Source: Phycisphaerae bacterium (GTDB lineage Bacteria > Planctomycetota > Phycisphaerae > SM23-33). Taken from it: a DNA stretch of 64,000 nucleotides. The DNA lies in NCBI GenBank assembly GCA_018335035.1, contig JAGXKT010000010.1, positions 28 through 64,027 of the forward strand, given 5' to 3'. The notes beneath the pieces are model-generated. The model was given only the letters and a program-made list of their open reading frames with translations. It did no database searches and was not told the origin of the DNA. Each line of letters starts with the position of its first letter. Positions within the stretch are counted from its first letter, which is position 1. The translations under genes and the position numbers were made by a program. Below, in pieces: positions 1-48,098 of the stretch.

Positions 1-1031
1 GTCGTCGGTTCGGGCACCGTCGCGATCCAAGCTTCCGTATCACCTTCAGGGTTCGTGCCCGTACCCACGATAACGCCACCGTCATGCGAGACACCGGCCG
101 CCTCTGTCAACGTCCAGCCGGCCAGGTCGACCCCCTCGTCCGTGAGCACTTCGGTCACGGCGTGCATGCCACTCGCGGCATCCCACACGAAGGCGCGTTG
201 CTCGCCCGAGCCGTTCTGGCTGTGGCCGACCACTACGGCGCCATTGGCAGAGACGGCCTTGGCGCGACTATCCAGGTACGCGTTCTCGTCGCTGAGAAAC
301 CCCAATCCTGTCATGCCGTCACCGTCGGCCCATCGGAAGGCTTCGTACTTATCGTTGCTATTGCGGCTGAAGCCGACCACCACGCTACCATCTCCAGAGA
401 CCGCGTGGGCCTTGCTGTACGGCTCCTCGGAAGCCAGCCCGCCGAGGTGGTCGGGGTCGTTGTGCCCCGCGACCCAGCGGAGGGCCTGGTAGGTCCACTC
501 GGACCATCCCACGATGACCGCGCCGTCGTCCGAGGCGCCGCGCGCTTTGTCGAAGTCGCTGAGTTCCACCATGCCACCGTCAGCGGTCCAACGAAAGCCC
601 TTGCTGTTACTGCGGCCTACGACGACGTCACCGTCTCCGGAGACGGCGTAGGCCTTGGCATTGTCGCCCACACTGCTCATGCCGCTCCCGGCGACCCAGC
701 GAAAGGCCGTATAGTCGGCATCATCCAGCGTATAGCCAACCACGACGCTCCCATCGGCCGAAACGCCACAGGCCTCGCTGCTGTCGTCACCCGTAAATGC
801 ACCGAGCCCCACAATTCCGGTCGCTTGAGTCCACCGAAATGCTTCGCTTGAGTACTCGCTGCTGGAATACCCCACAACCGCTGTCCCATCAGCAGACACA
901 CCTGTCGCCACGCTGACGTATGCGCCTTGGGGCAGGTCGCCTAAGCCCTCGAAACTCGCTGCCGACGCTCCTTGGCCATAAACACAGGCGCTCGCGCAGC
1001 ACAAAACCACACACACATGGTGATTCCACAT
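1..1031 (-). CDS. HAF-family extracellular repeat protein; N-terminus and signal peptide are in the window, the 3' end runs off the left edge
   Basis: ATG is the reverse complement of 1029-1031. Translation: MWNHHVCVVLCCASACVYGQGASAASFEGLGDLP, then repeated G..VVGYS...AFRW..GMxxLG units typical of the HAF repeat (TIGR02913-like). No stop before position 1. Absent from the ORF track because it is incomplete. Confidence 0.6.
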   Translation of the reverse strand, partial: MWNHHVCVVLCCASACVYGQGASAASFEGLGDLPQGAYVSVATGVSADGTAVVGYSSSEYSSEAFRWTQATGIVGLGAFTGDDSSEACGVSADGSVVVGYTLDDADYTAFRWVAGSGMSSVGDNAKAYAVSGDGDVVVGRSNSKGFRWTADGGMVELSDFDKARGASDDGAVIVGWSEWTYQALRWVAGHNDPDHLGGLASEEPYSKAHAVSGDGSVVVGFSRNSNDKYEAFRWADGDGMTGLGFLSDENAYLDSRAKAVSANGAVVVGHSQNGSGEQRAFVWDAASGMHAVTEVLTDEGVDLAGWTLTEAAGVSHDGGVIVGTGTNPEGDTEAWIATVPEPT

Positions 1032-1319: not shown

Positions 1320-1889
1320 TCACGTCGCGACTGCTTGCTCCACCCATTCACAGAGTACGTGGTAGATCGCCACGTGCCCTTGCTGGACGTGCGCCGTCGT
1401 ATCGGCCGGCACGTTAAGCAGGACGTCGGCGAACTCGGCGCACTTGCCACCCCTTCGCCCGGTCAAGGCGATGGTCGTCATCTGCATCTCGCGTGCCTTG
1501 GACAGGCCCGTAACCACGTTCGCCGAGTCACCCGACGTGCTCAGAGCGACAGCGACGTCGCGCGCGGCGGCCTTGGCCTCCAGTTGACGCGCGAAGACGG
1601 CCTCGTAGCCGTAATCGTTTCCAAGCGCGGTCAGCACGGCGGAATCGGCATTGAGCGCCTCGGCCCGAAAGCCGTGCCGTTCCATCGCGAATCGCCCGAC
1701 AAACTCGGCGGCGATATGCTGGGCATCACAGGCCGACCCCCCATTGCCGAACAGGAAGATGCCACGCCGTTGCCGAACCGCCTCGGTCAGGATGTCGGCC
1801 GCGTGTGCGATACTGCCTTCCAGGTGCAACGGTATAGCGCGGATCGCCTCGGCCGCTTCGTCGAACCGTTTCGATAGCTCTGTAGACAT
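1320..1889 (-). CDS. gmhA: Phosphoheptose isomerase (SIS domain; GmhA/DiaA family)
   Basis: FLFGNGGSACDAQHIAAEF matches the GmhA signature. Start moved to the internal ATG (MSTELSKRF), which has GGAGAG 6 nt upstream. The longer track ORF (1982) has an R-rich N-extension. Confidence 0.7.
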   Translation of the reverse strand: MSTELSKRFDEAAEAIRAIPLHLEGSIAHAADILTEAVRQRRGIFLFGNGGSACDAQHIAAEFVGRFAMERHGFRAEALNADSAVLTALGNDYGYEAVFARQLEAKAAARDVAVALSTSGDSANVVTGLSKAREMQMTTIALTGRRGGKCAEFADVLLNVPADTTAHVQQGHVAIYHVLCEWVEQAVAT

Positions 1890-2120
1890 CGCACTCTCCT
1901 CGCGAGGCACAGTATTCCATACGGCGGACCGCCCTGCCAGCCCATTGCTCCGAAGAGCTTGGCTCGTGCACGTGCCTGACATGGCTGGCCTTCGCGTAAG
2001 CCAGCGCCGATCAAAACGTACGTCGATTCAACCACCACGGCAGGTCCGGCAAGGCAACAAGCGTGTCGCGCCGTAAACTATGGGGCGCGGCGCGAGCCGC
2101 GTCACCGCGAAGGCAGATAC

Positions 2121-2521
2121 ATGCGAATCATCAACGTCGCCGGAGCCCGTCCGAATTTCATGGAGATCATCCAGCGGGACCTGCTCATCGTTTTACCATC
2201 CATCCGCGGACGCGGAAGGACCTCCCACGGCTTGGCCTGGCCGAGCGCACCGAGCGCATGGCGAATCTGTGGCTGATCGACCCGGCCGGCTACCTGGACT
2301 TCCTCAAGCTGACGGCCGAGTCACGGCGCGTGCTGACCGACTCCGGCGGCATTCAGGAGGAAACCACGATCCTGACGGTCCCCTGCATCGCGCTACGGGG
2401 AAGCACTGAACGGCCGGTGACGGTCGAGAGCGGATCATATCAACTTGCGGGGACCAACCCGGAAGCGATTCTGGCGGCCTATCGCAGGATCGCCGACGGC
2501 GCGCCCTGCACAGGCGTCCGA
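2121..2521 (+). pseudogene. wecB: UDP-N-acetylglucosamine 2-epimerase (WecB) remnant: intact start plus 17 N-terminal codons joined out of frame to the C-terminal ~115 residues, and 3'-truncated at the GH55 stop
   Basis: Frame 0 from 2121 reads MRIINVAGARPNFMEII (WecB N-terminus, AAGG 8 nt upstream), then nonsense and a stop. Frame +2 from ~2185 reads FTIHPRTRKDLPRLGL...LIDPAGYLDFLKL...VLTDSGGIQEE...RGSTERPVTVESGSYQLAGTNPEAILAAYRRIADG, i.e. WecB residues ~245-350. The terminal NPYGDG block is missing, and this frame runs straight into the antisense of the GH55 gene. Confidence 0.5.
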
Positions 2522-4411
2522 CTACTCGCGGCCCGTGGCGGATTCGTTGATCGCGCTGTACAGGCCGACGTTCAGCGTGTTGGGGGCGACGCGGAATTCC
2601 TTCACCTGATCGCCGCGGATTTCGATCGCGTGAAGCGCCCGCGCCTTGCCCGGCGCCCATGCGAAGTGGAAGTAGCTGGCTGTCAAGGACGCGTCCTTGG
2701 TGATGAAGTACGGCACCCCCGTGGACAGATCCACCCCCTCCAGCGGCGGCTTGCCGCGCCATTGATAAGACTCCGGCCCGCGGTGGTCGCGGAAGAAGCC
2801 GCCGAACACCTCCGTCCGCCCGCCGTCGGTGGTTACGACGTGGACGGCGGGGTCCTCCGTCTTGAACCCCATCAGGCAAACGTGCGCCCCGCGGTTGCGG
2901 ATGTACGTGCGCGGCAGTTTGCCGGGGCTGAACGGGTTGTTCTCCATGTCGCATTGACGGACGACAACGTGAGCCGGCGCCGTAAAGGTCGAATCGCCAA
3001 TCCCCTCGTCGATGAAGATCTTCCGCGCCTCCGGCGTGTTGCCATAGACGATCCAGCCGCAGGCGTTGAAGTAGACCGTTCGCGGCGTGGCGACCTGTGC
3101 GGCCAGCACGCGACGCGGCAGCCCCAGCCATTCGACGGCGATCGGGTGCTCGCCGTCGCCCTCGAAACGCAACACGGGCTTGCCCTGACCGGCGAAGCGC
3201 CGGCGACTGACGCGAATGGCCGCACCGAGCCCGACGATGCGCCGCACCGCCCCGCGAACGCGAATCGTATCGCTGACGCGGTAGTTCCCGCCCGGCGTGA
3301 ACAGCAGCGTCTGCGCGCCGGAGTCTATCGCGGCCTGGATCGCCTCCGTGTCGTCCCCGGCCGAGTCGTCGACAACCTTCCACCGCGACTTGGGCTCGAC
3401 GAACACCGTGGGCGGGCTGTCGACCAGGTCCAGGCCGCGAACGGGCGTGTCGTCGTAGACCGTGTGCGTGCGGCCGAGGATTGTCTCGGCGATCGCGTCG
3501 CCGGCAACGACCTCGTCGCCTTCGCGCAAGGCCGCGGCGTAGCCGGCGGTCTTGACGCGGCGTAGAACGGCCGCGCCCCGAACATGCTCAATGGCGCAAT
3601 GCGCGCCGTCGCCGCCGGTCAGCGTCGCGTCCACGAGGGCAAGGTTCGCCTTCGCGCCGTCGTTTCGGATCGCGGGCACCTTGTTGATACTGACGAAATT
3701 CTGAATGGTCACCGGGAAGCGGTTCAGCATGCCCAGCGTGTTCTGGTTCTTGAGCGTGATGTCCACCAGCGTGCCGTGCGAAACCTGGTCGAGGGTCTTG
3801 ATGCCGACGTCGAAGCCCTCAACGGTCACGCGGCGGAGCATGCCGGGCCCGAACTCCGTGGACGACATGTCCACGCCCACGACCCCGCTGCCGTCGCCGG
3901 AGCGGACGACCACGTCGCCGAGGATGCCCTGATTGTGCGTGGTGTACATCACGCCGATCGCGCCGGGGTTGCCCGTGCCGGTATCGACGGTCAGATGGAG
4001 GATGTAGTTCGCGAACGCCGCGTTCGCACGGCTGTCGTTGCCATAGGTGCCCTCGGCATGAGCCGTCCACAACACGGGCTTGGGCGTGTCGGGATCGCCG
4101 AACCCGCCGCAACGGTCCTTCAGCTTGATCGTCGTCTTACCGGCACCGGCGCCGATGAGCTTCTTGCGTTGCGCCCAGCCGATCGTGCCGCTGACCAGAT
4201 ACGTCCCCTCCGGCACGTAGATCACCCGGGCGCCGGAGACGGCTTTCTTGAACGCGGCCGTGTCGTCCGTCACACCGTCGCCGACGGCACCCGCGCGGCG
4301 AACGTTCCGCCAACCGCCGACGGGGAAGTCCTCGTCGCGAATCGGCGTCGCGGCGTGGGCGTGAGTGGCCCCGACCGCCGCGACACACAGCAACCGTCCG
4401 ATCTTGTTCAT
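2522..4411 (-). CDS. Secreted glycoside hydrolase family 55-like (pectate-lyase-superfamily double beta-helix; putative exo-beta-1,3-glucanase)
   Basis: Signal peptide MNKIGRLLCVAAVGATHAHAATP. Two beta-helix domain starts: GAVGDGVTDDTAAFKKAV and DDSAGDDTEAIQAAIDSGAQTLLFTPG. Paralogous to 4470..8030 and 12349..14262. Confidence 0.8.
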   Translation of the reverse strand: MNKIGRLLCVAAVGATHAHAATPIRDEDFPVGGWRNVRRAGAVGDGVTDDTAAFKKAVSGARVIYVPEGTYLVSGTIGWAQRKKLIGAGAGKTTIKLKDRCGGFGDPDTPKPVLWTAHAEGTYGNDSRANAAFANYILHLTVDTGTGNPGAIGVMYTTHNQGILGDVVVRSGDGSGVVGVDMSSTEFGPGMLRRVTVEGFDVGIKTLDQVSHGTLVDITLKNQNTLGMLNRFPVTIQNFVSINKVPAIRNDGAKANLALVDATLTGGDGAHCAIEHVRGAAVLRRVKTAGYAAALREGDEVVAGDAIAETILGRTHTVYDDTPVRGLDLVDSPPTVFVEPKSRWKVVDDSAGDDTEAIQAAIDSGAQTLLFTPGGNYRVSDTIRVRGAVRRIVGLGAAIRVSRRRFAGQGKPVLRFEGDGEHPIAVEWLGLPRRVLAAQVATPRTVYFNACGWIVYGNTPEARKIFIDEGIGDSTFTAPAHVVVRQCDMENNPFSPGKLPRTYIRNRGAHVCLMGFKTEDPAVHVVTTDGGRTEVFGGFFRDHRGPESYQWRGKPPLEGVDLSTGVPYFITKDASLTASYFHFAWAPGKARALHAIEIRGDQVKEFRVAPNTLNVGLYSAINESATGRE

Positions 4412-4469
4412 CGCGCCACGCCTTTCGCCGGTCGTGGGCCACCTGTCGCGCGCACCGGGGATGCGGCGC

Positions 4470-7400
4470 CTACTTGGTCAACATCGCCGCGCCCCAGGTC
4501 ACCGGCTTCTTGAAGCCCTGGTCCTTGCTCTTGTCGGACAGGAACTGCGCCGCCGACTTTCCGTCGTCGATGATGACGACGTTGAAGCTGACTTTCGTGT
4601 CGGGCGTCATCTTCGCCGGGCGCAGCAGCCGCGCCGGAATTATGAACTCGATGGCGTAGCCGTTGGACGTCTTGGCCCACGCCGCCTTGATGAGGTTCTG
4701 CCACGGGCGGTCGTATCCCCAGACCTCCAACGCCGCATCGCCCGGCTTGCCACTGGCCGCCGGACCGACGGTCAGTTGCATCGTCTTGCCGTCCTTCTCG
4801 GCGCGGGCGAAATCCTTCTCGATGAACACCTCGACGCAGTCGGCCTTGTACAGGTCGTAGTCTGCGCCGGCGATGGAATCATCCACAACCAAGGCCGAGC
4901 CGTACAGCCCCTGGTCGGACCATGCGAACCGCACGCCGCTGGCCTGGACGCCTTCGAAGGGCATCGGCAGAGATGCCACACCCTTCCAGTCGTCCAGGTC
5001 GCCGTCGATGGCGATCTCGCGGGGGGCCTTGGGCAGTTCAAGCGGGCTGTCCACCGTGCCTGCCCCGCCGACGGCGCCGGCGCCGACAGGCGGACTGGCG
5101 GGATGGCCTTCTTCGCCCAGCACGAAGATCTGCCGAACCGCCTCGGGGCCCGGCAGCGCGTGGCCGTCCTTGAAGCACCGCGCGCGAAGCTTGCAGCTCT
5201 TCTTGACCGTGATCGGCGCGGTGTACAACGTCGCGTCCTTGTCGGGCGCGGAGCCATCCAGCGTGTAGCGGATGTTCGCGTCCTTGCTGCCGCCGCCTTT
5301 GACCTGAACGGCCAGCGCGACGTTGACAGCACCGTCCTCTGCCTTGGCGTCCTGGGTGCTGTCGACCCCAACGGACCATCGCGCCCCGTGGCTCAAGGCC
5401 GAGTCCGGAATGGGCTCTTCGTCGGCGCCGGGGACTTTCCACATGACCTTCAGCCCCTGCCCGCCGCGGCTCTCAAAGAAGCCCACGCGGATGGGATGCT
5501 TGCCGGCCTCGAGGTTGATCTTGCCGGACGCGGTGAGCATGCCGTGCGGCAGGTCGTTGTCCACGACCAGCTCGTCGCCGATGTACAGCACGCTTCCATC
5601 GTCCGAGGCGGTGTAGAACGTATACATGCCCTCGCGCGGCACCTCCACGTAGCCCTCGAACCACAGGGCGAAGTTATCGTCGGCCGAAGCCATCTCCAGC
5701 CCGAAGTTCTTGACGACGCCTTTGCTCTTGGGGTCATGCTCGTCGGGATCGGGCACGGCGCCCCACCCGCCCTCGTAATACGTGTAGCGCACGCCCGGCG
5801 TGGTGGCCGGCGGGTGCGCCGCCTTCCGCGGACGGACGAACCGATACGTCTGCCGCCCGACGCCGCCGCCCTGATCGCCCCAGAAGCAGCGTGCGGTGAC
5901 CGTTGTGGTCTCGTCCAGCGTGAACGGGCCGGTGTAGCGCTTGGAATCGAGCGTCGGCTTGCTGCCGTCCAGCGTGTAGCGAACGGCGACGTCTTCGCTC
6001 GTGACGCCGGCGGGCAGTTCCAGCGAGACGGTGACGTTCTCGCCGTGCGGCCAGGTGGCGCCTTTCGGCTGCACTGCCGGCCAGCGGCGGCGCATGCGGT
6101 CGTCCGGCGTGGCGGCCTCGTTGATCGCGCTGTAGAGCCCGAGGTTGAGGTTGTTCGGCGGGACGCGGAATTCCTCCACCTGGTCGCCGCGAATCTCGAT
6201 GCCTTGCAGCGCCCGGGCCTTCCCGCCGGCCCAGGCATACTGGAAATACGTGGCCGTCAGGGACGCGTCCTTCGTGATCCAGTACGGCACGCCGGCGGAC
6301 ATATCCACGCCAGGCAGCGGCGGCGCGCCGTGCCATTCGTAATCCGTCGGACCGAAGTGATCGCGGAAGAACCCGCCGAGCACCTCGGTCTTTCCGCCGT
6401 CGGTGGTCACGGCGTGGACGGCCGGCGCTTCGGTCTTGAACCCGAGCACGCAGACGTCGGCGCCGCGATTGCGGATGTAGGTACACGGCAGTTTGCCGTC
6501 ACCGAAGGGGTTGTTCTCCATGTTGCACTGGCGGATGACGACCTTCGCCGGGGCGACGAACATCGAATGGCCCATGCCCTCGTCGATGAAGATCTTCCGC
6601 GCCTCGGGTGTGTTGCGATAGCCCATGTAGCGGGTCGACTGGAAGTACACGGTTCGCGGCGTGGCGATCTCGGCGCCGATCGCGCCGTCGGCGGCGTTGA
6701 TCCACTCGACGGAGATCGGATGCTTCCCGTCGCCCTCGAACCGCATGACCGGCTTGTCGGCCTCGACGAACTCCCGCCCGGGCCCGCGAATGGTCGTGCC
6801 GAACCCGAAGCCGATCAGCCGCCGCACCTTGCCGCGAACGCGGATCGTGTCGGTCACGTCGTAATCGCCGCCCGGAATGAAGAACAACGTCTTGGCGCCC
6901 GAGTCGATCGCGGCCTGGATGGTCTCCGTGTCGTCTTCGGCCGAGTCGTCCACGACCTTCCACTGCGATCGCGGCTCCTCGAACACCGGCGGCGGGCTCT
7001 CGGCCAGACGCAGCGCCCGGATGGGCGTGCCGTCATAGACGCTGTGCTCCGGGCCGAGCACTCTCTCGTCAATCGACGCGCCGTCGATGACCTTGCCCTC
7101 GAGCTTCAGCGCGGCCTTGTAGCCGGCGGTTTTGACGTCGCTGAGCAGGCCCGACCCCTTGACCTGCTCGATGGCGCAGTGATCGGGCGACCCGCCGGTA
7201 AGCTTCGCGCCGACCATCGCCAGGTTGGCGATGCCGCCGTCGTTGCGGACGGCGGGCACCTTGTTGACGCTGACGAGGTTATGGATGGTCACCGGGAAGC
7301 GGTTGAGGATGCCCAGCTTGTTCTGATTCTTGAGCGTGATGTCCACGAGCGTTCCGTGCGAGACGTTGCCCGTGGTCTTGATGCCGATGTCGAAGCCCTC

Positions 7401-8030
7401 GATCGTCACGCGGCGGAGCATGCCGGGCCCGAACTCCGTGGACGACAGGTCGATCCCGATCGGGCCGCTGCCATCGCCCGAGCGAACGACCACATCGCCG
7501 ACGTAGCCGTAGTTGTGCGTCGTGTATTCGATGCCGACGGCGCCCGCGTTGCCCTTGCCCGTGTCCACGGTCAGATCAAGGATGTAGTTGCCGAACGCCG
7601 CGTTGGCGCGGCTATCCCGCCCGTAGTGGGCTTTCTTGTGCCCCGCCCAAAGCACCGGCTTGGACTTGCCACTGAACCGGTCGCAGTTGTCCTTGAGCTT
7701 GATGACGGTCTTGTCGGCCCCGTCGCCGACGAACCACGTCCGCCGCCCCCAGCCGATCGTGTCGCTGACCACGTACGTACCGGCCGGCACATAGATGACC
7801 ATGTACTCGAAGGGGTCCGTCTTGCGGGCCGAGAGGGCCTTGCGGAACGCCGCCGTGTCGTCCGTCACCCCGTCGCCCTTGGCGCCCTGGTTCTTGACGC
7901 TGCGCCATTCGCAGTACTTCTGGCTCTTGGGGAAATCCTCGGGGCGAACCGGCGTCGCCGCGCGGACCTGTGAACCAACCACGGCCGCCAGACACACGGC
8001 CAATCCCATCAGCTTCGTCATGCGTTGCAT
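4470..8030 (-). CDS. Multidomain secreted GH55-like hydrolase: GH55 core + PA14 + 2x chitobiase/hexosaminidase C-terminal-like (CHB_HEX_C) + CBM9-like
   Basis: Start set at ATG 8030 (MQRMTKLMGLAVCLAAVVGSQVRA), with AAAGGA 8 nt upstream; the track's 8054 is a GTG. GAKGDGVTDDTAAF and DDSAEDDTETIQAAIDSGAKTLFF motifs. PA14: GLEMASADDNFALWFEGYVEVPREGMYTFYTASDDGSVLYIGD. CHB_HEX_C-like: VRYTLDGSKPTLDSKRYTGPFTL...ARCF and IRYTLDGSAPDKDATLYTAPITV...ARCF. C-terminal CBM9-like: IDGDLDDWKGV...GYAIEFIIPARLL. Confidence 0.8.
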   Translation of the reverse strand: MQRMTKLMGLAVCLAAVVGSQVRAATPVRPEDFPKSQKYCEWRSVKNQGAKGDGVTDDTAAFRKALSARKTDPFEYMVIYVPAGTYVVSDTIGWGRRTWFVGDGADKTVIKLKDNCDRFSGKSKPVLWAGHKKAHYGRDSRANAAFGNYILDLTVDTGKGNAGAVGIEYTTHNYGYVGDVVVRSGDGSGPIGIDLSSTEFGPGMLRRVTIEGFDIGIKTTGNVSHGTLVDITLKNQNKLGILNRFPVTIHNLVSVNKVPAVRNDGGIANLAMVGAKLTGGSPDHCAIEQVKGSGLLSDVKTAGYKAALKLEGKVIDGASIDERVLGPEHSVYDGTPIRALRLAESPPPVFEEPRSQWKVVDDSAEDDTETIQAAIDSGAKTLFFIPGGDYDVTDTIRVRGKVRRLIGFGFGTTIRGPGREFVEADKPVMRFEGDGKHPISVEWINAADGAIGAEIATPRTVYFQSTRYMGYRNTPEARKIFIDEGMGHSMFVAPAKVVIRQCNMENNPFGDGKLPCTYIRNRGADVCVLGFKTEAPAVHAVTTDGGKTEVLGGFFRDHFGPTDYEWHGAPPLPGVDMSAGVPYWITKDASLTATYFQYAWAGGKARALQGIEIRGDQVEEFRVPPNNLNLGLYSAINEAATPDDRMRRRWPAVQPKGATWPHGENVTVSLELPAGVTSEDVAVRYTLDGSKPTLDSKRYTGPFTLDETTTVTARCFWGDQGGGVGRQTYRFVRPRKAAHPPATTPGVRYTYYEGGWGAVPDPDEHDPKSKGVVKNFGLEMASADDNFALWFEGYVEVPREGMYTFYTASDDGSVLYIGDELVVDNDLPHGMLTASGKINLEAGKHPIRVGFFESRGGQGLKVMWKVPGADEEPIPDSALSHGARWSVGVDSTQDAKAEDGAVNVALAVQVKGGGSKDANIRYTLDGSAPDKDATLYTAPITVKKSCKLRARCFKDGHALPGPEAVRQIFVLGEEGHPASPPVGAGAVGGAGTVDSPLELPKAPREIAIDGDLDDWKGVASLPMPFEGVQASGVRFAWSDQGLYGSALVVDDSIAGADYDLYKADCVEVFIEKDFARAEKDGKTMQLTVGPAASGKPGDAALEVWGYDRPWQNLIKAAWAKTSNGYAIEFIIPARLLRPAKMTPDTKVSFNVVIIDDGKSAAQFLSDKSKDQGFKKPVTWGAAMLTK

Positions 8031-8218
8031 AATCGTTCCTTTCTCACGCCTCACGACGTATCAGATTTCCGAAAACTCGGCCTATCGGCCGGGATCGTTG
8101 CGCCGCATCACCTGCTTGAACCGCTCAGACGGTCGGATGTTTCGGTCCCGGACTCGATCGCTTGTTACACATCATGAATTAGTGTATGCGTCGCGATGCG
8201 CGGCAAACGGCTGGCGCG

Positions 8219-9715
8219 TCATTCGACCACGTACTGCTGCGGCAGGTCACGCGGATACTCCTGGAGCGGCACGATGTCGCTGGTCGTCACGTACCAGTCC
8301 AACAGCGCCTGCTCCAGCGCGCTTTGCACCGCCGCGTATTCGTCGCTCCCGTGGACGTTGCGCAGCTCCCGGGGGTCCTGCGTCAGGTCATACAGCTCGT
8401 CCACGCCGAGCGGACGACGCACCAGCTTGTGGGTCCGCGTGCGGATCATCGCACACCGCGTGACTGTCTCCGGCCGCTCCTGTTGCATGCGAAGCTTCGC
8501 CCCCATGCGGTATGTGCCGCCGGCGGCCTCGACCCTGGCCTTGCGCGGCGCTTCGCGCGGCGGATGGCCTTCCAATGCGTGGACCTCGCGCCCGGGAAAG
8601 CCGTCGTAGCCGCCCTCGGCGAACACGGCCCGGTCCGGATCGCCCGGCGCCCCGCGAAGCTGCGGCACCAAGCTTCGCCCGAACTGCGTGTACGCCAGCG
8701 GCACGCCCGTCAGCTCGTGAATCGTGGCCGGCAGGTCCTGCAATTCCACCGGCTCGGCCACCACGTGGCCCGGCGTCACGCCCGGCGCCCGAATCAGCAA
8801 CGGCACACGCGTCAGGACGTCCTCCAGCCCGGACGGCCATTTCTCCACCAGCCCGTAGTCCCCCGCGTAGTCGCCGTGGTCCGAGAAGTAGACCAGCGCC
8901 GTATTCTCCGCCAGTCCCGAGGCGTCGAGGTACGCCATCATGCGGCCCAGCATCCAGTCCGCATACGAGACCATGCCGAGATACGTCGCGTTGACGCGGC
9001 GCATGATCTGTGGGTCGCGTTTTTCGGCCCCGCGGTGGCGGAAGTAGTCTCGCTTGACCGCGTGGTACAGCGGTTTGCCGGCGCCTTCCGGCGGGCGCAG
9101 CGCGGGGACGTCCTCGTGAGCGTACATGTCGTGCCACGGCGCCGGGGCGCAGTACGGCTCGTGCGGGTACAGCAGCGGCAGATACACCACGAACGGCTGG
9201 TCGTTGTGATTGCGGCGGCGGTCCTCCATGAATTCGATCGCCCGGTCGATGCGCCGACAGTCCGTGGACTCCTCCTGGGCGTAGTCCGTCGCCGGTTGAA
9301 GATGCGTCTCGGCGCGCGGGTCGTCCTGCTCGAATAGCCGCCCGGAACTCAGCCACGGTCCCGGCGTGTCGCGAAGCTCGCTGACCGACAGCGGAAACGA
9401 CTCGGGCGCCAGGCAATCGTTGTGCCCGCCATCCCAGTACACGTAGTAGCCCGCCTCCTTCAGCGACCGCAGAAGGTTCGGCTCCTCCGGCTGCAGCGGG
9501 TAAAACAGCGTCCGGTGCCCGCGTACGTGTGGATACCAGCCGGTCAGGAACGAGCACCGCGACGGCCCGCACACCGTGTGCTGTGCGTGGCATTGATCGA
9601 ACCGTACCCCCTCGTGCGCCAGACGATCCATGTTCGGCGTCTGAACCAGCGGATGCCCGTAGCACCCGACGCTTTCGGCACGCATCTCGTCCGGGTTCAA
9701 CAGGATGATATTCAT
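8219..9715 (-). CDS. Sulfatase (formylglycine-dependent arylsulfatase family), no signal peptide
   Basis: Sulfatase signature CGPSRCSFLTG. N-terminus MNIILLNPDEMRAE is the conserved 'PNIIlilaDdlg' block at residue 2. Only 43 bp separate the start from the upstream gene, so there is no room for a leader. Confidence 0.85.
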   Translation of the reverse strand: MNIILLNPDEMRAESVGCYGHPLVQTPNMDRLAHEGVRFDQCHAQHTVCGPSRCSFLTGWYPHVRGHRTLFYPLQPEEPNLLRSLKEAGYYVYWDGGHNDCLAPESFPLSVSELRDTPGPWLSSGRLFEQDDPRAETHLQPATDYAQEESTDCRRIDRAIEFMEDRRRNHNDQPFVVYLPLLYPHEPYCAPAPWHDMYAHEDVPALRPPEGAGKPLYHAVKRDYFRHRGAEKRDPQIMRRVNATYLGMVSYADWMLGRMMAYLDASGLAENTALVYFSDHGDYAGDYGLVEKWPSGLEDVLTRVPLLIRAPGVTPGHVVAEPVELQDLPATIHELTGVPLAYTQFGRSLVPQLRGAPGDPDRAVFAEGGYDGFPGREVHALEGHPPREAPRKARVEAAGGTYRMGAKLRMQQERPETVTRCAMIRTRTHKLVRRPLGVDELYDLTQDPRELRNVHGSDEYAAVQSALEQALLDWYVTTSDIVPLQEYPRDLPQQYVVE

Positions 9716-9758
9716 CGTAATCTCGCCCGACCCGGCGGATTCCCCGGGAAAGAAGACC

Positions 9759-11015
9759 TTACGTCAAGCCGCTGGTATTGTGAAACTGCAGTTCGCGAAT
9801 CTCGCCCTCGCCGTCGGCGTCGACGATCTCCAGCCAGGCCTTGCACGCCTTGACCAGGGGGAACCGGCAGATGGCCTTGTGCCCGATGCTCTTGCCCTCG
9901 TAGAGCGTGGTGTCGCGCCCTTCCGGCGCGGGAGTGATGCGGATCGCGAACCGACGGACGTGCTCGCCGCGGGTGATGTCCTCCTGAATGACCGCATGGT
10001 CCATCAGGAACGGTTCAGCCGGTTCGTACACGAGACGATTGCCCGCCTGACGGCAGTCCGCCCTCGTGCACAGCGGCGAGCCGAAACGCCGCCGCAGCGC
10101 CTCGCCGAATTCGGTCAGCCGGGCAGCGTCCTCCTCGTGGACGCGTCCCCGCAGGTCCGGGCCGACGTTCAGCAGCAGGTTGCAGCCCCGCCCCACGGAG
10201 TAGTCGTACAGCCCCATCAGTTCCTCGACGCTTTTGAGCGGGTCGTCCGTGCCGCGCCACGTCCAGCCCTCGTAGCGGAGACGGCAGTCGCACTCGGCCG
10301 GCAGCCAGGTCGGGGCGGGCATGGTGTCCACCTCGTCGGATTCGATGGAAAACGGCACCTGCTCGACGGTATTCCAGTTGGGAATGGAGGCGATGCCGGC
10401 CTCGTTGCCGACCCAGCGGAAATCGGGATCGCCCATGTTGAAGATCCGAATCTCCGGCTGCATCGCGCGGATCTCCTGGATCAGCATGGGCCAGTTGTAC
10501 GCGTGCCCCTCGCTGAACGCGCCGTCGAACCAGAGAATGTCGATCGGGCCGTACGCGCCGCCGAGAAGCTCCCGCATGTGACTGAGGAAGTACTCATCGT
10601 AGGCCGGCGGGTCGGCCTGGTACGACGGCTCGTGCGCGTCGAACGGCGAGTAGTACAGCCCGACCGCCAGGTGCTGCCCGCGGCAGGCGTCGACGAACTC
10701 GCCGACGACGTCGCCCGCCCCGTCGCGCCACGAGCAGGCCGCCGTGGAGAAATTCGGTGTCGTCGCCGACGGCCAATGGCAGAAGCCGTCGTGATGCTTG
10801 GCCGTGTAGACCATGTACCGCGCCCCGGCCTGGGAGGCCAACTGCGCCCACTGCTGGCAATCCAGCTCGCTCGGGTCAAAGGCCTCGGTCTGGACCGAGT
10901 CCTTCTCGGCCTTGAAGTCCGTCTGGTGCGTGTACTGCCCGGCCAGAAAGTGAATGAACAGCCCGAATTCCCAATCCTGGAAGTCAAGCTGCCGCTGCGT
11001 CGGTTTGGCGGTCAT
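9759..11015 (-). CDS. Alpha-L-fucosidase (GH29), no signal peptide
   Basis: GH29 N-terminal blocks WEFGLFIHF, WAQLASQAGARYMVYTAKHHDGFCHWPS and ILWFDG. Confidence 0.8.
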   Translation of the reverse strand: MTAKPTQRQLDFQDWEFGLFIHFLAGQYTHQTDFKAEKDSVQTEAFDPSELDCQQWAQLASQAGARYMVYTAKHHDGFCHWPSATTPNFSTAACSWRDGAGDVVGEFVDACRGQHLAVGLYYSPFDAHEPSYQADPPAYDEYFLSHMRELLGGAYGPIDILWFDGAFSEGHAYNWPMLIQEIRAMQPEIRIFNMGDPDFRWVGNEAGIASIPNWNTVEQVPFSIESDEVDTMPAPTWLPAECDCRLRYEGWTWRGTDDPLKSVEELMGLYDYSVGRGCNLLLNVGPDLRGRVHEEDAARLTEFGEALRRRFGSPLCTRADCRQAGNRLVYEPAEPFLMDHAVIQEDITRGEHVRRFAIRITPAPEGRDTTLYEGKSIGHKAICRFPLVKACKAWLEIVDADGEGEIRELQFHNTSGLT

Positions 11016-11176
11016 GCGTGTTCGCTCCGACAGGTCGGTTCGATGCGTATCGGCTTACAGCGATGTGCGCAAGATTCTCGACAACCGGAGCACCGAATGT
11101 CAACGGAGCTGTTGGCGAGGGAAGGCAAACACCATGGGGCGCCGTCCCCAGATCACGCGCGACGCAGGTCGGCGGC

Positions 11177-11950
11177 TCAGCGGTCGAAGTCCGCCCACAG
11201 GCCGTGCGTTTCCGTCTCGTCGAGGTAGAGATAGTCGGGGGCGTCCACGAACGGGCGTAGTTCACCGGTGGGGAATTCCGGGTCGTAGATCGTCTCCTCG
11301 ATCTGCTCGATGCCGACCCACGCCACGGAGCCGTCGCCGTAGCCGACGTTCAGCCCATCGCCGTGGCGATTCTCGACGGACCCCGAGCCGAAGACGTAGT
11401 CCGACACCATCGCCTGTTGGGCTGAGACCTGCCGCGGTAGGTCAGGGAAGTTGTTGCCGGACCAAAACCAGGCCGGCCACTGGACGCTCGGACGGGTTCC
11501 GTATCCGGCACGGCAGAACGTGGAGCCCTCAAGCGGCGGCCATTCGTTGCCGTCCCCGTTGTAAGCGAGGAACTGGTTGTCGCTTTGGCTCGGACAGTAA
11601 AACAGGCGCCCCTGTTCGACCAGTTCGGCCTGCCAGAGCTTGCCCAGCATCATATAGGCATCTTCGTTGTTCTGATAATTGACGACGTAGTCGCCCCACT
11701 TGCCGGCGCCGTAGTACCCAACGGGCACCATGCCGTACTCCGTAGCATACGCCAGCATCTGCGTGGTGATGCCGCGCACCTGCACCGCACAGGACGAACG
11801 GTGCGCCAAGTCTCTGGCGCGCTCCAGCGATGGCATCAGAATGCTCACCAACACCGCGATAATCGCGATGACCACGAGCAACTCGATCAACGTAAATGCG
11901 CGCGTCGAGACCATCGGCTTTTCGTGCGGGGCCATGTGATATTTCTCCAC
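11177..11950 (-). CDS. DUF1559 'H-X9-DG' protein with prepilin-type N-terminal cleavage/methylation domain (Planctomycete-type pseudopilin-like)
   Basis: RAFTLIELLVVIAIIAVLVSILMPSL prepilin N-terminus. C-terminal NRHGDGLNVGYGDGSV is an H-X9-DG motif. Start uncertain between M at 11950, 11935 and MVSTRAF. Confidence 0.75.
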   Translation of the reverse strand: MEKYHMAPHEKPMVSTRAFTLIELLVVIAIIAVLVSILMPSLERARDLAHRSSCAVQVRGITTQMLAYATEYGMVPVGYYGAGKWGDYVVNYQNNEDAYMMLGKLWQAELVEQGRLFYCPSQSDNQFLAYNGDGNEWPPLEGSTFCRAGYGTRPSVQWPAWFWSGNNFPDLPRQVSAQQAMVSDYVFGSGSVENRHGDGLNVGYGDGSVAWVGIEQIEETIYDPEFPTGELRPFVDAPDYLYLDETETHGLWADFDR

Positions 11951-12348
11951 GATGGGTTACCTAAGACCGGCGTGACCAGCGACGACATGCGACGGCACGC
12001 GCCGGACTCGCTTATGCCGGCTTCAGCCAAGACCAAGGCGGCGCCCAACGGCAAACGAAGAAGCCAATTGCTCCGATGTAAGACCGCCACGGTACCGGAA
12101 ATTCTAACATGCATAACCGGTATATCAAAGAAAGGATTGCCCTGCGTGACGCGGCATGTCTAGCCCACAGAAATGCTGATCGCGCGCGAAATCCGGCGTA
12201 CGGTAGGCCAGGGCCCGTGAGACCCGTCATGCGAGAGCGGCCTGTATACCGGCTGAGGGGGCCGCGATCGCCGCAGCGGACGCAAACCAACCCGGCCGGT
12301 GCGCACGGCGCGGGGGGCCTCAGACGCTGCAGGAATACGGCGGCCGCG

Positions 12349-14262
12349 CTACGGCGAATCCGGCGGGGCCGCGCTGTACAGCCCCATCGCACGCGTAGCC
12401 GGCTTGACGCGAAGTTGCTTCGTTTCGTCGCGGCGAATCTCGATCGCCTGAAGTGCCCGCGTCCGGTCGCCGGCGAACTGCACGTACGACGCCGTCAGCG
12501 ACGCGTCCTTCGTGATGAAGTAGGGCACTGCCTCCAGTTGCACGCCCGGCACGGGCGACTCGCCGAACCAGCGGTACTGGTCCGGGCGGAAGTGGTCGCG
12601 GAAGAACCCGCCGAGGATCTCGCTACGCCCGCCGTCCAGCGTGACGACGTGCACGGCCGGGGATTCCGTCTTCATGCTCAGCACCCACAGGTTCGCGCCG
12701 CGGTTGATCACGTAGGTGCGGGGCAGTTTGTACCGTCCGCCCTGCTCGATGCGGAACGGGTTGTTCTCGGGGTTGTACTGGCGAATCCAGACGTTCTGCC
12801 CGGGATGAAGCCGCAGGCTGGCGCCGGTCTCGTCGAGGAACAGGTCGCCCGTCGCCTCCGGCCGTGCGGTCAGCCCGTGGAACCAGCCGTACTTGATATG
12901 CACCGGGCGCGACGTGGCGATCTCGATGCGGTCGTTGTGCGTCGGCCAGGCGGAGATGCTGACCGACTCGATGGTCACCGGTCGGCCCTCGCCTGCGACG
13001 CGGAGCATGGGCTTGTCCGCGAAGTTCCCTTTCGGGTCGATGGCGCGAAGATTGCCATGGTGGTGCTTCAGCGCGAGGATGCGGCGGACCGCGCCACGGA
13101 CGACGATGGTGTCGCTGATCTTGTACTGCACGTTCGCCGGCAGAAAGACCGTCCTGGCGCCGGAGTCGATGGCGGCCTGCAAGGCCCGCGTGTCGTCCTC
13201 GCCCGAGCCGTCCGGCGTGACCCATTGGTCCACCGGCTCGACGAACGTAGCGGGCGGGTCCTTGATCTTGAGGCCGATGTGCCCCTCGGCGGCCGGGAAC
13301 ACCGCCTCGCGCCGTCCGGCGACGGCCTCGTCGATCGACGCGCCGGGCACGACGGTGCCTTCGGCCCGCAGCGCGGCCTTGTAGCCGCTCGTGCGAACGT
13401 TCCGCAGGTAGTGAGAACCATCGCTCTCGATGGCGCAGACGTCGGGTGAGCCACCGGTCAGTTTCCCGTCGATGAGTACGAACTGGGCGAGCTGGCCGCC
13501 GTTGCGCACGGCCGGGACCGCGTTGTGGCTGACCAGTCCGCGAACCGAGACGGGCAGATGATTCTCGAAGCCGACGACCTTCTGGGCTTTGAGCGTGATA
13601 TTCTCGAACGCGCAGCTCGACGGGCTGCCCGGCGTCTTGACGCCCACATCGAACCCCTCGACGGCGATGTTGCGGACCATGCCGGGCCCGAACTCCGTGT
13701 CCGACAGGTCGATACCGACGGCACCCGATCCGTCGGCGGCGCGAAGGGTCACGTCCTCGACCACGCCGTGATTGTGCGTGGTGAAACGGACGCCGACGGC
13801 GCCGGGATTCCCGCGCCCTACGTCGATCGTCATGTTGCGGACGTAATTGCTGAACGCGGCATTGCAGCGCGCATCCCGGCCGTAGAAGGGCCCCCGGGCG
13901 CCGGTGACGACAACGCCCTTCGGATCGCCGTCGTAGCCCGGGCAGTCGTCCTTGAGCTTGATGATGGTCCCGTCGCGGCTTTGGCCCTGGAGCGTGATCC
14001 AGTTGCCCCAGGCGATCCGGTCGCTGACGAGGTACGTCCCGTCCGGCACGTAGATGACCTGGAAGTGCCGCTTGACCGCCTGAATCGCCTTAACGAACGC
14101 GGCCGTGTCGTCCGTCTTGCCGTCGCCCTTGGCGCCGAAGTCGCGAACGTTGAACTGCCCGGCACCGGCGGGGTAGACGACCTCCCGGGCGCCCGCTGTC
14201 GCGGCGCAACCACACAATAGAAGCATCGCGATGACGAGGTCGGCTCGAAGTACGTCGATCAT
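12349..14262 (-). CDS. Secreted GH55-like double beta-helix hydrolase (third paralog), possible lipoprotein
   Basis: Start moved to ATG 14262 (MIDVLRADLVIAMLLLCGCAATAGA). FGAKGDGKTDDTAAFVKAI and DGSGEDDTRALQAAIDSGARTVFLP motifs. The track start 14391 has an R-rich extension. Confidence 0.8.
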   Translation of the reverse strand: MIDVLRADLVIAMLLLCGCAATAGAREVVYPAGAGQFNVRDFGAKGDGKTDDTAAFVKAIQAVKRHFQVIYVPDGTYLVSDRIAWGNWITLQGQSRDGTIIKLKDDCPGYDGDPKGVVVTGARGPFYGRDARCNAAFSNYVRNMTIDVGRGNPGAVGVRFTTHNHGVVEDVTLRAADGSGAVGIDLSDTEFGPGMVRNIAVEGFDVGVKTPGSPSSCAFENITLKAQKVVGFENHLPVSVRGLVSHNAVPAVRNGGQLAQFVLIDGKLTGGSPDVCAIESDGSHYLRNVRTSGYKAALRAEGTVVPGASIDEAVAGRREAVFPAAEGHIGLKIKDPPATFVEPVDQWVTPDGSGEDDTRALQAAIDSGARTVFLPANVQYKISDTIVVRGAVRRILALKHHHGNLRAIDPKGNFADKPMLRVAGEGRPVTIESVSISAWPTHNDRIEIATSRPVHIKYGWFHGLTARPEATGDLFLDETGASLRLHPGQNVWIRQYNPENNPFRIEQGGRYKLPRTYVINRGANLWVLSMKTESPAVHVVTLDGGRSEILGGFFRDHFRPDQYRWFGESPVPGVQLEAVPYFITKDASLTASYVQFAGDRTRALQAIEIRRDETKQLRVKPATRAMGLYSAAPPDSP

Positions 14263-14288
14263 GATGGTGCCCTTTCGCACGCGGTCCG

Positions 14289-15893
14289 TCACTTGTCGGC
14301 GGACGCCGGGCGGTACCACTTGTCCGAGACGATCGCCTTGCGAAGCGCGTCGGGCCATTGGACGATCAACGCGTCCCGCTCCCCCCGGCACCGCTCGCCG
14401 AAGGTCACGTTGTCCCAGCGTTCGGCGATCGACGGGTTCTCCAACAGCAGCCCACCGACGGCGAGGTCGTCGAAGCGGACGTTTCGCAACATCAACTCGC
14501 CGCAGATGCCCAGCGTGATCTCCTCAGGCATCTGCTTGTAGCCGTCCAGGCGCCCTTCAAACCACGCATTATGCCGTCGGTGCCAGCAGATGACCAGCTT
14601 CGCTTCGTCCGGATCGGCCGTGTGGACCACCACCTCCGCCGACGGGGTGAAGATCGCGCCCGGCACACGCCGCTTGACATCGCGGAAACCGGCCGGCGCC
14701 TTGAAGCTGATGCCGAAGCAAACGTCCTCCGTAATTGGATGGGCCTCGGTGCCCGCCTCAATCCGCCCGGCGATGATGATGTCCATCGAGCCCTGGCTGT
14801 ACTTGAAGCCGTAGCCGCTGCCGGGTGCCGTGTGGGCCTTGCCGTACTCGGCGCCGGACATCAGCCGCAGCGTCGTGCCACGGGAAATGTGCTGCACCGA
14901 ACGGGTCCCCGCCCAGAGCTGGCTGCCCTCGGCGACGATCGCCGTGCCGGCCTTCATCTGGAAATCGTCGCTGCTGACGACGGTCCCCGAGAACTCGACC
15001 GACGCGTCGCCTTCCTTGCGTACGTTCAGGTACTGCGACATTCCGTATGGCTTGCCGACCGGGATGATGAACCCGCCGCGAACGGGCTTCGCGCCGGGGG
15101 ATTCCGGCGTCAGCCGCGGCTGATCGTTCAGGAAGAACGTGTGCTTCGCGCCGCACATGACCGTGGTGTAACGGCAACGATAGATCCCGTCGCGCGCCAC
15201 CCACAGGTTGCCCACCATCTGCGGAACCGTCGACGGGTTGAATTTGGCGTTATGCTCGACGGTGACGTGGCGAAACTTGATGATGCCGGCCGGACGCAGT
15301 TTGTACTTGGACTGGTATGATTTCGCCGCGACCGGTACGAGAATGTCCGTATCCGGGCCCAGCCAGGAGACCTTCAGGTCTCTGCGGTCGATGGTCTCGA
15401 CGGGGGGCCAGAGCTCCTCGCCGGTGCCGCCGACAACAATCCAGTTGTCCGGGTCGTGCAGCACGCCGGTGGTACCGGGATTCTTCCAGACGAGCAGCCG
15501 GTGGGGTGCGTCCCACGTCTCGCCGGTGTAGGCGGGCTTGCGCCCGGTCGCCGGCGGCGCGTCCGGCCAGTCGGTCCGTCCGATCAGACGCTTCTCCTCG
15601 TCCGTCAGCGCGCGCTTGGCATTGAGTTGCTCGCGCTTGCCTTGGACCGTCACCGCGTGGACATGCTGCTTCATGAACGACCGCAGCGTCGCCAGGCGCG
15701 GTGAATAGACGACCAGGTAGTCGTCCATCTCGCATTCGACGGCCAACTTGCCTTCGATCCGCGTTCCGTCAACAAGCTCGATCGTACACGCCGCCAGCTT
15801 GACCGTCGGCGCCCCTTCAGCCGTGACGCAGCCCGTCACGATCATGAGACAAGCGGCGATTTCAACGGCGACAGACCACTTTATTCGCATCAT
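14289..15893 (-). CDS. Hypothetical lipoprotein, 534 aa, no recognisable domain
   Basis: Start ATG 15893 (MMRIKWSVAVEIAACLMIVTGC) with GAGGAG ~8 nt upstream. The lipobox V-T-G-C fits. The track start 15965 adds an R/C-rich leader. A 26-bp gap separates it from the GH55 gene downstream. Confidence 0.55.
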   Translation of the reverse strand: MMRIKWSVAVEIAACLMIVTGCVTAEGAPTVKLAACTIELVDGTRIEGKLAVECEMDDYLVVYSPRLATLRSFMKQHVHAVTVQGKREQLNAKRALTDEEKRLIGRTDWPDAPPATGRKPAYTGETWDAPHRLLVWKNPGTTGVLHDPDNWIVVGGTGEELWPPVETIDRRDLKVSWLGPDTDILVPVAAKSYQSKYKLRPAGIIKFRHVTVEHNAKFNPSTVPQMVGNLWVARDGIYRCRYTTVMCGAKHTFFLNDQPRLTPESPGAKPVRGGFIIPVGKPYGMSQYLNVRKEGDASVEFSGTVVSSDDFQMKAGTAIVAEGSQLWAGTRSVQHISRGTTLRLMSGAEYGKAHTAPGSGYGFKYSQGSMDIIIAGRIEAGTEAHPITEDVCFGISFKAPAGFRDVKRRVPGAIFTPSAEVVVHTADPDEAKLVICWHRRHNAWFEGRLDGYKQMPEEITLGICGELMLRNVRFDDLAVGGLLLENPSIAERWDNVTFGERCRGERDALIVQWPDALRKAIVSDKWYRPASADK

Positions 15894-15978
15894 GGCACAT
15901 CTCCTCGGAAGAGCTCTGTTTGTGGAACACACGCGCTCGCCGATGCGCTCGCAAGTCGGTTGCAATTGGATGCCACGG

Positions 15979-18465: not shown

Positions 18466-18484
18466 GGTAGACTTCCTGCGGCGT

Positions 18485-19261: not shown

Positions 19262-19272
19262 TTCAAGGACAC

Positions 19273-19291
19273 AAAAGCGAACCTCGCTTTG
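19273..19291. promoter_or_regulatory. Perfect 7-bp inverted repeat AAAGCGA-acc-TCGCTTT, 13-29 nt upstream of the iclR ATG, in the iclR/GH31 divergent region
   Basis: Seen directly in the sequence. Palindromic operators are typical of IclR regulators. Could equally be an mRNA hairpin. Confidence 0.3.
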
Positions 19292-19483
19292 ATGAATTAT
19301 AGGCCATGCGAACGACCCGGTCAAGCCCGTTGCCCTCCGCAGATCGGCCGGCGTGACGACGGCGTCCCGTCGCGCCAGCGGGCTTGCCATTGATCCGAAG
19401 CGGCCTTGGCGGTACCGTGCCTCGCCGGCAGCGTCTGGCCGATTCGGGCCGAGCGCACGAGCGACGATGGAAAGGACCCCTTC

Positions 19484-28714: not shown

Positions 28715-28762
28715 CGCGATGCCGGCGGTCCCGTCGGCGGGCGGATTATATCGCCCGAAGAA

Positions 28763-29833: not shown

Positions 29834-29914
29834 GGCGCGAATGATACGCCCCCGCCCGCGCGGGCACAACCGCCGGGTATTCCCTCGGAGGCCCCAGGAC
29901 AGTAGGATGCACCC

Positions 29915-40837: not shown

Positions 40838-40889
40838 GGCGGGGACGGACACAAAGGCCCCCGGCGCAGGAAGTTCAAGGACAAGCAAC

Positions 40890-45712: not shown

Positions 45713-45733
45713 GTAGTACAGCAAAGCACGGCA

Positions 45734-46579: not shown

Positions 46580-46592
46580 CTTCCAGTCTCTA

Positions 46593-48090: not shown

Positions 48091-48098
48091 AATCCGTC

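Follow-up and report, generated by a model that had tools for sequence, protein, structure and literature searches.

Positions 2121–2521 (forward strand) of the 64-kb stretch of DNA analysed here, hereafter referred to as the window, very probably represent a non-functional relic, i.e. a pseudogene, of a gene encoding a non-hydrolysing UDP-GlcNAc 2-epimerase of the WecB/MnaA family (Pfam Epimerase_2), as judged from the sequence. The relic is about 400 bases long and retains approximately 134 of some 370 codons, about two-thirds of the gene being gone. Starting from an ancestral gene of approximately 365–380 codons, its present state would have required at least three independent lesions, namely an internal deletion, a frameshift and the loss of the 3′ end. 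The features of the relic and of its immediate neighbours are listed in Table 1.

Table 1. Features of the wecB relic and of the adjoining genes, in the coordinates of the window.
Feature	Position	Strand	Evidence or remark
HAF-repeat protein	3–1031	−	Upstream of the relic
gmhA-like SIS-domain gene, 190 aa, intact	1320–1892	−	SIS_2, E = 4e-27; divergent, 228 bp from the relic ATG
Shine–Dalgarno-like GAAGG	2109–2113	+	7-nt spacer to the ATG; read from the sequence
wecB codons 1–14, MRIINVAGARPNFM, with the GARPNF motif typical of WecB N-termini	2121–2162	+	Alignments with L081, P0123 and P0127
51-codon ORF starting at the wecB ATG	2121–2276	+	ORF list
Junction of the in-frame internal deletion, ~630 bp (~210 codons)	2160–2168	+	Gap against P0123; GARPN-to-HPRT spacing
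wecB residues ~228–239, EIIQRDLLIVLP, still in the ATG frame	2163–2198	+	Matches in P0001 and L081
Site of the 1-nt deletion (frameshift)	2187–2199	+	20 nt where 21 are needed
wecB residues ~240–337 in the shifted frame, IHPRTRK...GYLDFLKL...VLTDSGGIQEETTIL...ERPVTVESG...AILAAY	2198–2491	+	PF02350, TIGR00236, 4NEQ
TGA closing the 51-codon ORF	2274–2276	+	ORF list
Terminal stretch of ~10 codons in the wecB frame (RRIADGAPCTGVR region), variable linker	2492–2521	+	C-termini of P0001, P0005, P0077 and P0123
GH55-like β-helix gene, 629 aa, convergent	2522–4411	−	PF12708, E = 2.4e-28; stop codon TAG at 2522–2524

The preliminary description of this DNA had termed the segment a deletion remnant of wecB, and this was supported by all tests run, i.e. 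profile searches, comparison with PDB entry 4NEQ, alignment, tblastn, motif scanning and spacing measurements. The second reading frame of the relic, with codons counted from 2198 (IHPRTRKDLPRLGL...VLTDSGGIQEETTIL...LAGTNPEAILAAYRRI; full reading IHPRTRKDLPRLGLAERTERMANLWLIDPAGYLDFLKLTAESRRVLTDSGGIQEETTILTVPCIALRGSTERPVTVESGSYQLAGTNPEAILAAYRRIADGAPCTGVR), matched Pfam PF02350 (Epimerase_2) at profile positions 220–318 of 347 with an E-value of 8.9e-26 and 91 bits, the cut-off being 30.6 bits. It also matched the NCBIfam model TIGR00236 (wecB) at positions 226–332 of 366 (E = 1.3e-29), with a score of 103.5 bits, roughly half of the 210.15 bits required by the equivalog cut-off. The archaeal epimerase of Methanocaldococcus jannaschii (4NEQ) was matched at residues 226–334 of 374 (E = 5e-25), and in all three comparisons the C-terminal third alone was covered; of profile positions 1–219, nothing but the first 14 residues is left. 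A HMMER search of 1.84 billion representative proteins yielded 12,085 library proteins at E ≤ 0.001, and in the full-length homologues among them (367–383 aa) the fragment aligned at residues ~237–340. The closest sequences were WecB proteins of uncultured Planctomycetota, with identities of up to 69% (P0001) and 62% (P0123), and a global alignment of the repaired translation of the relic with the 383-aa P0123 showed 61% identity over the aligned columns. When full-length WecB was used as a tblastn query against the window, two collinear pieces were obtained, both of which align to WecB, and no further piece or copy of wecB was detected in the 64 kb.

Members of the family are full-length two-domain (GT-B-like) proteins of approximately 360–385 residues that reach the equivalog score and are encoded in a single uninterrupted reading frame, and the relic fails on each of these points. 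It has, on the other hand, the properties of a pseudogene, i.e. collinear homology, disabling lesions and the loss of essential parts, with intact full-length homologues existing elsewhere. The relic is thus a descendant of the WecB/Epimerase_2 family, but is predicted to be incapable of acting as a working member of it. A literature search combining wecB and pseudogene returned incidental mentions only.

Translation initiation signals are preserved at the 5′ end, where an intact ATG preceded by a Shine–Dalgarno-like sequence and encoding the N-terminus of WecB was found as originally described. The 51-codon ORF that begins at this ATG opens with MRIINVAGARPNFMEII (longer reading, MRIINVAGARPNFMEIIQRDLLIVLP). 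Its N-terminal peptide is identical at 13 of 14 positions to the wecB N-terminus of the Planctomycetota-like locus L081, and aligns to residues 4–19 of P0123 and 2–17 of P0127. By itself, this 14-residue peptide is too short to be significant (tblastn E-values of 0.02–0.1). The pattern GARP[NQ]xx, however, occurred only four times in six-frame translations of ~2 Mb, in each case at a wecB start and upstream of a DSGGIQEE motif on the same strand. The nucleotide-binding loop G-A-R-P-N-F-x-K, which follows the start in this family, is recognizable in MRIINVAGARPNFM, while the next lysine and the remainder of the domain are deleted.

The two homologous pieces had been described as separated by a gap of about 60 bp, but there is no such gap, since WecB homology resumes at 2163 in the frame of the ATG. 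Codon 14 (MRIINVAGARPNFM) is joined directly to residue ~228 (EIIQRDLLIVLP), and the latter segment corresponds to ...EVIQRDLPIVFPVHPRT (...EVIQRDLPIVFPVHPRTRK; ...VIQRDLPIVFP) in P0001 and to DVVQKDVPIVFPIHPRT in L081. In the alignment with the repaired translation, residues 20–229 of P0123 form one clean gap. Accordingly, the distance from GARPN to HPRT, which amounts to 685–688 nt in the full-length genes of L081, L162 and L163, is 59 nt in the relic. The difference of 626–629 nt fits 210 codons plus one nucleotide and thus indicates that the large deletion is in-frame; together with the gap against P0123 it also corrects the number of missing codons from about 230, as first estimated, to ~210. 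The HVEAGLRS and MPEEVNR region, which lies within residues 20–229 of P0123, is found neither in the relic nor elsewhere in the window. With residues ~15–227, the deletion removed all of the N-terminal Rossmann domain beyond its first strand and loop, together with the start of the C-terminal domain. In this family, the deleted segment carries the catalytic acidic residues (D95, E117 and E131 in E. coli; the HVEAGLRS...MPEE region in the homologues). The homologues read TTC ATG AAG ATC GCx at the proximal site, and the junction in the window reads TTC ATG GAG ATC ATC CAG. Assuming CTG GAG ATC ATC at the distal site, the two sites would have a TG-AGATC microhomology in common, and the deletion may have occurred by slippage or illegitimate recombination at this short repeat.

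The frame change constitutes a lesion of its own, separate from the large deletion and located ~30 nt downstream of its junction, before the segment IHPRTRK...TDSGGIQEE. The ATC...CCG stretch encoding IV(F/L)P(I)HP comprises 20 nt instead of the 21 required, the lost base having been one T of the run GTTTTA or else a base between CCA and TC, and slippage in the T-run may have been the cause of the frameshift. When base 2198 was used twice, a continuous alignment to residues 230–338 of P0123 was restored. Beyond this site the second frame remains open without a stop codon into the antisense strand of the next gene and retains the motifs of the C-terminal domain, among them the HP(R/V) strand, read as IHPRTRK (2198–2218), and the UDP-binding motif DSGG(I/L/V)QEE, read as VLTDSGGIQEE (2330–2362). 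Thus, the VLTDSGGIQEE motif and the different frame noticed earlier were both present, whereas the span of the homology, previously given as WecB residues ~245–350, is ~228–338 plus ~10 linker codons.

An error of assembly or sequencing, whereby the gene would be intact in the organism and the contig would carry a collapsed or chimeric join together with a homopolymer error, could in principle give rise to such a picture. To judge from the closest hits, the source appears to be an uncultured, Planctomycetota/Phycisphaerae-like organism of high GC content, GmhA (in two alternative starts) and the GH55-like protein have no exact match in the public collection, a T-run may be the place of the 1-nt lesion, and false frameshifts that split wecB are seen in public long-read assemblies, namely at L081, L162 and L163. 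Such artefactual splits, however, keep the full GARPN-to-HPRT length, whereas ~630 nt are gone from the relic, and the internal join preserves both collinearity and frame in a single-copy gene that offers no repeat on which an assembly could collapse. Moreover, the other genes of the window are long and uninterrupted (1194, 1057 and 980 aa), which is not what would be expected of an assembly riddled with indels, and the combination of three independent lesions with a substitution in an invariant column is in keeping with real decay. We therefore consider an artefact to be very improbable, and genuine decay of the gene remains the favoured reading.

This decay appears to be young. Over 98 aligned residues the mean identity of the fragment to 125 homologues was 0.569, as compared with 0.575 ± 0.043 for the homologues among themselves, and the GC3 of the relic (0.81) lies within the range of the confident ORFs of the window (0.81–0.91), only gmhA (0.77) and the HAF-repeat ORF (0.73) being lower. 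A divergence no greater than that of the 125 homologues, combined with the retained GC3, points to a recent inactivation. First signs of relaxed constraint were nevertheless detected, as the relic deviates at two of the 30 columns with a conservation of 90% or more. The first of these changes is a T-to-A substitution at the CI[T]LR column, which is invariant in 125 of 125 homologues, and the other an N-to-Y substitution at a column conserved to 94%; two or more deviations at conserved columns occur in only ~12% of the homologues. The sequence therefore suggests a gene that was recently inactivated and is starting to drift.

The retained start codon, the Shine–Dalgarno-like sequence and the preserved C-terminal segment would by themselves be compatible with some expressed product, and we considered whether the relic might function in a new role, be it through the 51-residue peptide, through a truncated C-domain protein initiated at a GTG at 2063, or as an antisense regulator transcript. 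Apart from the start signals and the good conservation of the C-terminal segment, the frame-3 ORF that is open from GTG 2063 and the lack of a convincing terminator where the relic meets the GH55-like gene speak in favour of such a role. The 51-aa product, however, had no Pfam match and consists of out-of-frame sequence after residue 26. The frame-3 ORF, for its part, runs antisense to the GH55-like gene for ~1 kb and has neither a Shine–Dalgarno sequence nor a homologous N-terminus. In addition, ~110 residues of a GT-B C-domain deprived of the N-domain and of the closing C-terminal helix (compare the structures 1F6D and 4NEQ) are not expected to fold, and this predicted inability argues against a truncated but active protein. 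If transcribed, the locus would yield only the 51-residue peptide, which lacks any fold-competent domain, and hence no epimerase. No sigma-70-like promoter was found between positions 1200 and 4600, promoter and terminator signals did not exceed the shuffled expectation, and there was no match to Rfam. Short WecB-like ORFs encountered elsewhere turned out to be split full-length genes and do not constitute a conserved short family. A new function is accordingly the least probable of the explanations considered, and we regard it as hardly credible. An explanation of the locus by a mobile element or an RNA gene found no support, as no tRNA, Rfam family, GC break or meaningful flanking repeats were observed.

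The short ORFs just mentioned deserve attention, as their conservation as genes in related genomes would have spoken against decay. Those of P0086/L081, P0016/L162 and P0049/L163, all on long contigs, were candidates for conserved short WecB genes and were dismissed, each of them belonging to a full-length gene split by frameshifts. Like the relic, these split genes give short Epimerase_2-positive ORFs that start near (V/M)HPRT or end early; in contrast to it, they keep their full length with the two halves lying side by side, whereas the relic lacks ~630 nt and its 3′ end. Compared with the WecB/MnaA family as a whole, the MRIINVAGARPNFM loop, the HPRTRK strand, the GYLDFLKL helix, the TDSGGIQEE UDP-binding motif and the TERPVTVE segment are present and collinear in the relic. 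It differs from a working WecB by the absence of residues ~15–227 and of the C-terminal PxLWDGxAAxRI block, and by the frame broken through the 1-nt deletion. Gene remnants generated by internal deletion, frameshift and truncation are a well-known class in bacteria and frequently border polysaccharide and accessory loci. The relic resembles these pseudogenes in its homology to an intact family, its multiple lesions, its retained start signals and its near-normal divergence, and it is particular only in that the large deletion is in-frame and that no spacer separates it from a convergent stop codon. It is thus an ordinary, typical bacterial pseudogene of a kind already known and not a new type of element. 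For annotation purposes, neither the 51-codon ORF nor the long frame-3 ORF should be called a gene, and ‘wecB pseudogene’ is the label to be given to the locus in place of ‘UDP-GlcNAc 2-epimerase, partial’.

At its 3′ end the relic adjoins the TAG of the GH55-like gene with no intergenic spacer. Confident WecB homology ends at about position 2491 (..AILAAY), and the last WecB codons represent a non-conserved linker, so that the junction with the GH55-like gene can only be placed within ~2492–2534. No counterpart of the conserved C-terminal PxLWDGxAAxRI block and the closing helix was found after ~2521, and the motif [LKFIV]WDG... was absent from all frames of the window. The terminal block had been reported as NPYGDG, the E. 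coli-type form, cut exactly at the GH55 stop codon. The loss of the block was confirmed, although in this clade it reads PxLWDGxAAxRI and the exactness of the cut did not stand in view of the interval given above. The last ~25–35 codons and any downstream spacer were lost, leaving the relic abutting the GH55-like stop codon, and this 3′ loss may have accompanied the juxtaposition with the glycan-degradation genes that follow.

Two apparent traces of the missing end were examined and discarded. A WecB-like run past position 2521 (GGFVDRAV as compared with GKAAERIV) proved to be the antisense of the conserved GH55-like stretch ...YSAINESA..., and the antisense of a tandem paralogue reads alike. 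A tblastn match of the WecB C-terminus at 16446–16529 on the reverse strand was a low-complexity chance match (E = 0.94) and out of frame with the resident ORF.

The possibility that one deletion had truncated both convergent genes was prompted by the paralogue at 4470–8054, which carries a 560-aa tail with CHB_HEX, PA14, Fn3_assoc and CBM9 domains. It was ruled out, as the 629-aa GH55-like protein ends at a natural domain boundary. The third paralogue (12349–14391) has its end only a few residues away from that point, and many homologues are 620–660 aa long, including P0269 with 631 aa and 67% identity. The extent of the paralogue and the lengths of the homologues thus show that the GH55-like gene is complete, and that it is the wecB 3′ end, with any spacer, that is gone. 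As regards the naming of this gene, its best matches in the PDB were enzymes of GH55, a β-1,3-glucanase family, but the similarity was weak and covered only ~90 residues (5M5Z, E = 1.3e-11 in two stretches; 3EQN, E = 2.4e-7). Pfam assigns the protein to the general β-helix family PF12708, and some homologues with 34–36% identity carry the NCBI name GH55. The GH55 label is plausible.

The GH55-like gene is the first of a block of ~19 kb (2522–21454) devoted to glycan degradation, which comprises three GH55-like paralogues, a sulfatase, a GH29 fucosidase and a GH31 gene. Beyond the block lie an S49 gene, ispF and cysS, followed by genes for a GT9 heptosyltransferase, a WaaP-type kinase and a GT1 protein, der, a PfkB gene, recA and aro genes. 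This arrangement raised the question of whether the block was inserted into the 3′ end of wecB within an envelope-biosynthesis neighbourhood, thereby killing the gene. The question concerns the origin of the relic, and either answer is compatible with its being a pseudogene. That the relic directly adjoins the first gene of the block, that the block is coherent in content, and that heptose/LPS-core genes (GT9, WaaP-type kinase, GT1, PfkB) reappear beyond it at 26–32 kb would all be in line with an insertion. A weak hint in the same direction came from distant relatives, where gmhA lies less than 10 kb from homologues of GT9, PfkB, CysS or RecA, these being 22–32 kb away and beyond the block in the window. 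However, no discontinuity in GC content or skew was seen at 2.5 kb, the GC3 of the block resembles that of confident ORFs elsewhere in the window, neither a tRNA nor meaningful flanking repeats were found, and Pfam scans of 30 ORFs extending to ~54 kb revealed no integrase or transposase domain. The missing wecB 3′ end was not recovered beyond the block or anywhere else in the window, and a simple insertion thus fails to explain its loss. Furthermore, neither the internal deletion nor the frameshift, which make up two of the three lesions, has any relation to the block boundary.

Comparative analysis gave no more encouragement to an insertion. In 160 gmhA loci (80 from genomes and 80 from metagenomes, with best identities of 57–61%), the intact gmhA–wecB pair proposed as a check in the preliminary description was never encountered, wecB being found within up to 10 kb of gmhA (less where contigs were shorter) in none of them. 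The genes neighbouring the relic between 1 and 25 kb of the window were not shared by these loci either, except for a distant CysS and one weak fucosidase-like match, besides weak matches to an 828-aa ORF. Around the closest homologues of the GH55-like protein, P0269 and P0267 (67% identity), no synteny was found, and neither wecB nor gmhA was nearby. The best matches of all three genes come from uncultured Planctomycetota/Phycisphaerae, with identities of 61% for gmhA, 69% for WecB and 67% for the GH55-like protein. As the searched collections yielded no close relative at the genus or species level, the ancestral intact state was deduced from distant homologues only. Taken together, the arguments against a gmhA–wecB cluster having been the target of a simple insertion outweigh those in favour, and we consider such an origin unlikely, though less so than an artefact. 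Of the initial interpretation, the deletion remnant of wecB is therefore retained, whereas the insertion of a glycan locus into a gmhA–wecB cluster, or the erosion of the latter, was not demonstrated.

The organism would have lost at least one copy of the gene for the UDP-ManNAc-forming enzyme, next to the gmhA-like gene, and any effect on the cell envelope depends on another Epimerase_2 copy elsewhere in the genome, outside the window. The relic would also identify the border of the glycan-degradation block as a place where rearrangement has recently occurred. A more elaborate scenario can be drawn from this, in which a recent rearrangement brought the ~19-kb sulfated-glycan/fucoside degradation block to its position between gmhA and the heptose/LPS-core genes, UDP-ManNAc synthesis was sacrificed at this locus, and the wecB start signals now drive an antisense transcript that modulates the first GH55-like gene; we regard it as far-fetched and give it very little credence. 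As to the divergent neighbour of the relic, its product contains the full SIS_2 domain and scored 174.5 bits with TIGR00441 (cut-off 209.45) and 181.3 bits with NF010546 (cut-off 276); the gene is best called gmhA-like, the label gmhA (D-sedoheptulose 7-phosphate isomerase) itself being plausible.

The gmhA-like protein retains a complete SIS_2 domain, scored under all NCBIfam gmhA equivalog cut-offs (e.g. 174.5 against 209.45 bits) and shared an identity no higher than 57–61% with its nearest relatives. GC3 of its gene (0.77) and of the upstream gene encoding a HAF-repeat protein (0.73) lay somewhat below the values for the CAZyme genes (0.85–0.90). A distance of 24–30 kb separates the gmhA-like gene from the heptose/LPS-core genes. 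Among distant relatives, homologues of GT9, PfkB, CysS or RecA occur within less than 10 kb of gmhA (loci L021, L027, L029, L056, L105, L113, L047, L049, L055, L058 and L060).

Within the wecB relic, a perfect 9-nt tandem duplication (CCGAGCGCA present twice, coding for (A)ERTER) was observed at positions 2241–2258; it leaves the relic length unchanged with respect to the homologues and is probably due to chance or to a small conversion. Many short public proteins annotated as UDP-GlcNAc 2-epimerase on long contigs proved to be frameshift-split full-length wecB genes, as exemplified by three long-read metagenome loci (L081, L162 and L163). In L081 at least four frame changes occur within the single gene and many neighbouring genes are fragmented, a pattern typical of long-read assemblies that have not been corrected.

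The window carries three paralogues encoding GH55-like beta-helix proteins, of which genes 1 and 2 form a tandem pair with 68% amino acid identity, the identity of gene 3 being 49%. Public homologues occur in two forms, tailed and bare-core (∼620–660 aa). The presence of a sulfatase, a GH29 alpha-L-fucosidase, a prepilin-type N-methyl protein and a GH31 gene in the remainder of the glycan-degradation block suggests that the organism uses a glycan carrying sulfate or fucose. Five large ORFs with coding-like GC3 yielded no Pfam matches, except for a C-terminal 4Fe-4S motif alone in the 828-aa ORF.

Coordinates of features in the window and of split wecB genes in public loci
Feature	Sequence	Position	Strand	Content
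HAF-repeat protein	window	3-1031	-	TIGR02913, 4 repeats; continues beyond window start
gmhA-like gene	window	1320-1892	-	SIS_2
GH55-like gene 1	window	2522-4411	-	PF12708
GH55-like gene 2	window	4470-8054	-	PF12708 + 560-aa CHB_HEX_C_1/PA14/Fn3_assoc/CBM9 tail
Sulfatase	window	8219-9715
GH29 alpha-L-fucosidase	window	9759-11015
Prepilin-type N-methyl protein	window	11177-11950
GH55-like gene 3	window	12349-14391	-	PF12708
Large ORF	window	14289-15965	-
Large ORF	window	15979-18465	-
GH31	window	19406-21454
Heptose/LPS-core genes	window	25935-32348		GT9 heptosyltransferase, WaaP/Kdo-type kinase, GT1, PfkB kinase
Large ORF	window	40134-42638	+
Large ORF	window	42787-45729	-
Large ORF	window	45734-46795	-
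Type II secretion/type IV pilus-like cluster	window	47299-54490	-	T2SSF, T2SSE ATPases (n = 2), prepilin-type N-methyl protein
Frameshift-split wecB	L081	7487-8584
Frameshift-split wecB	L162	2295-3384
Frameshift-split wecB	L163	2298-3543
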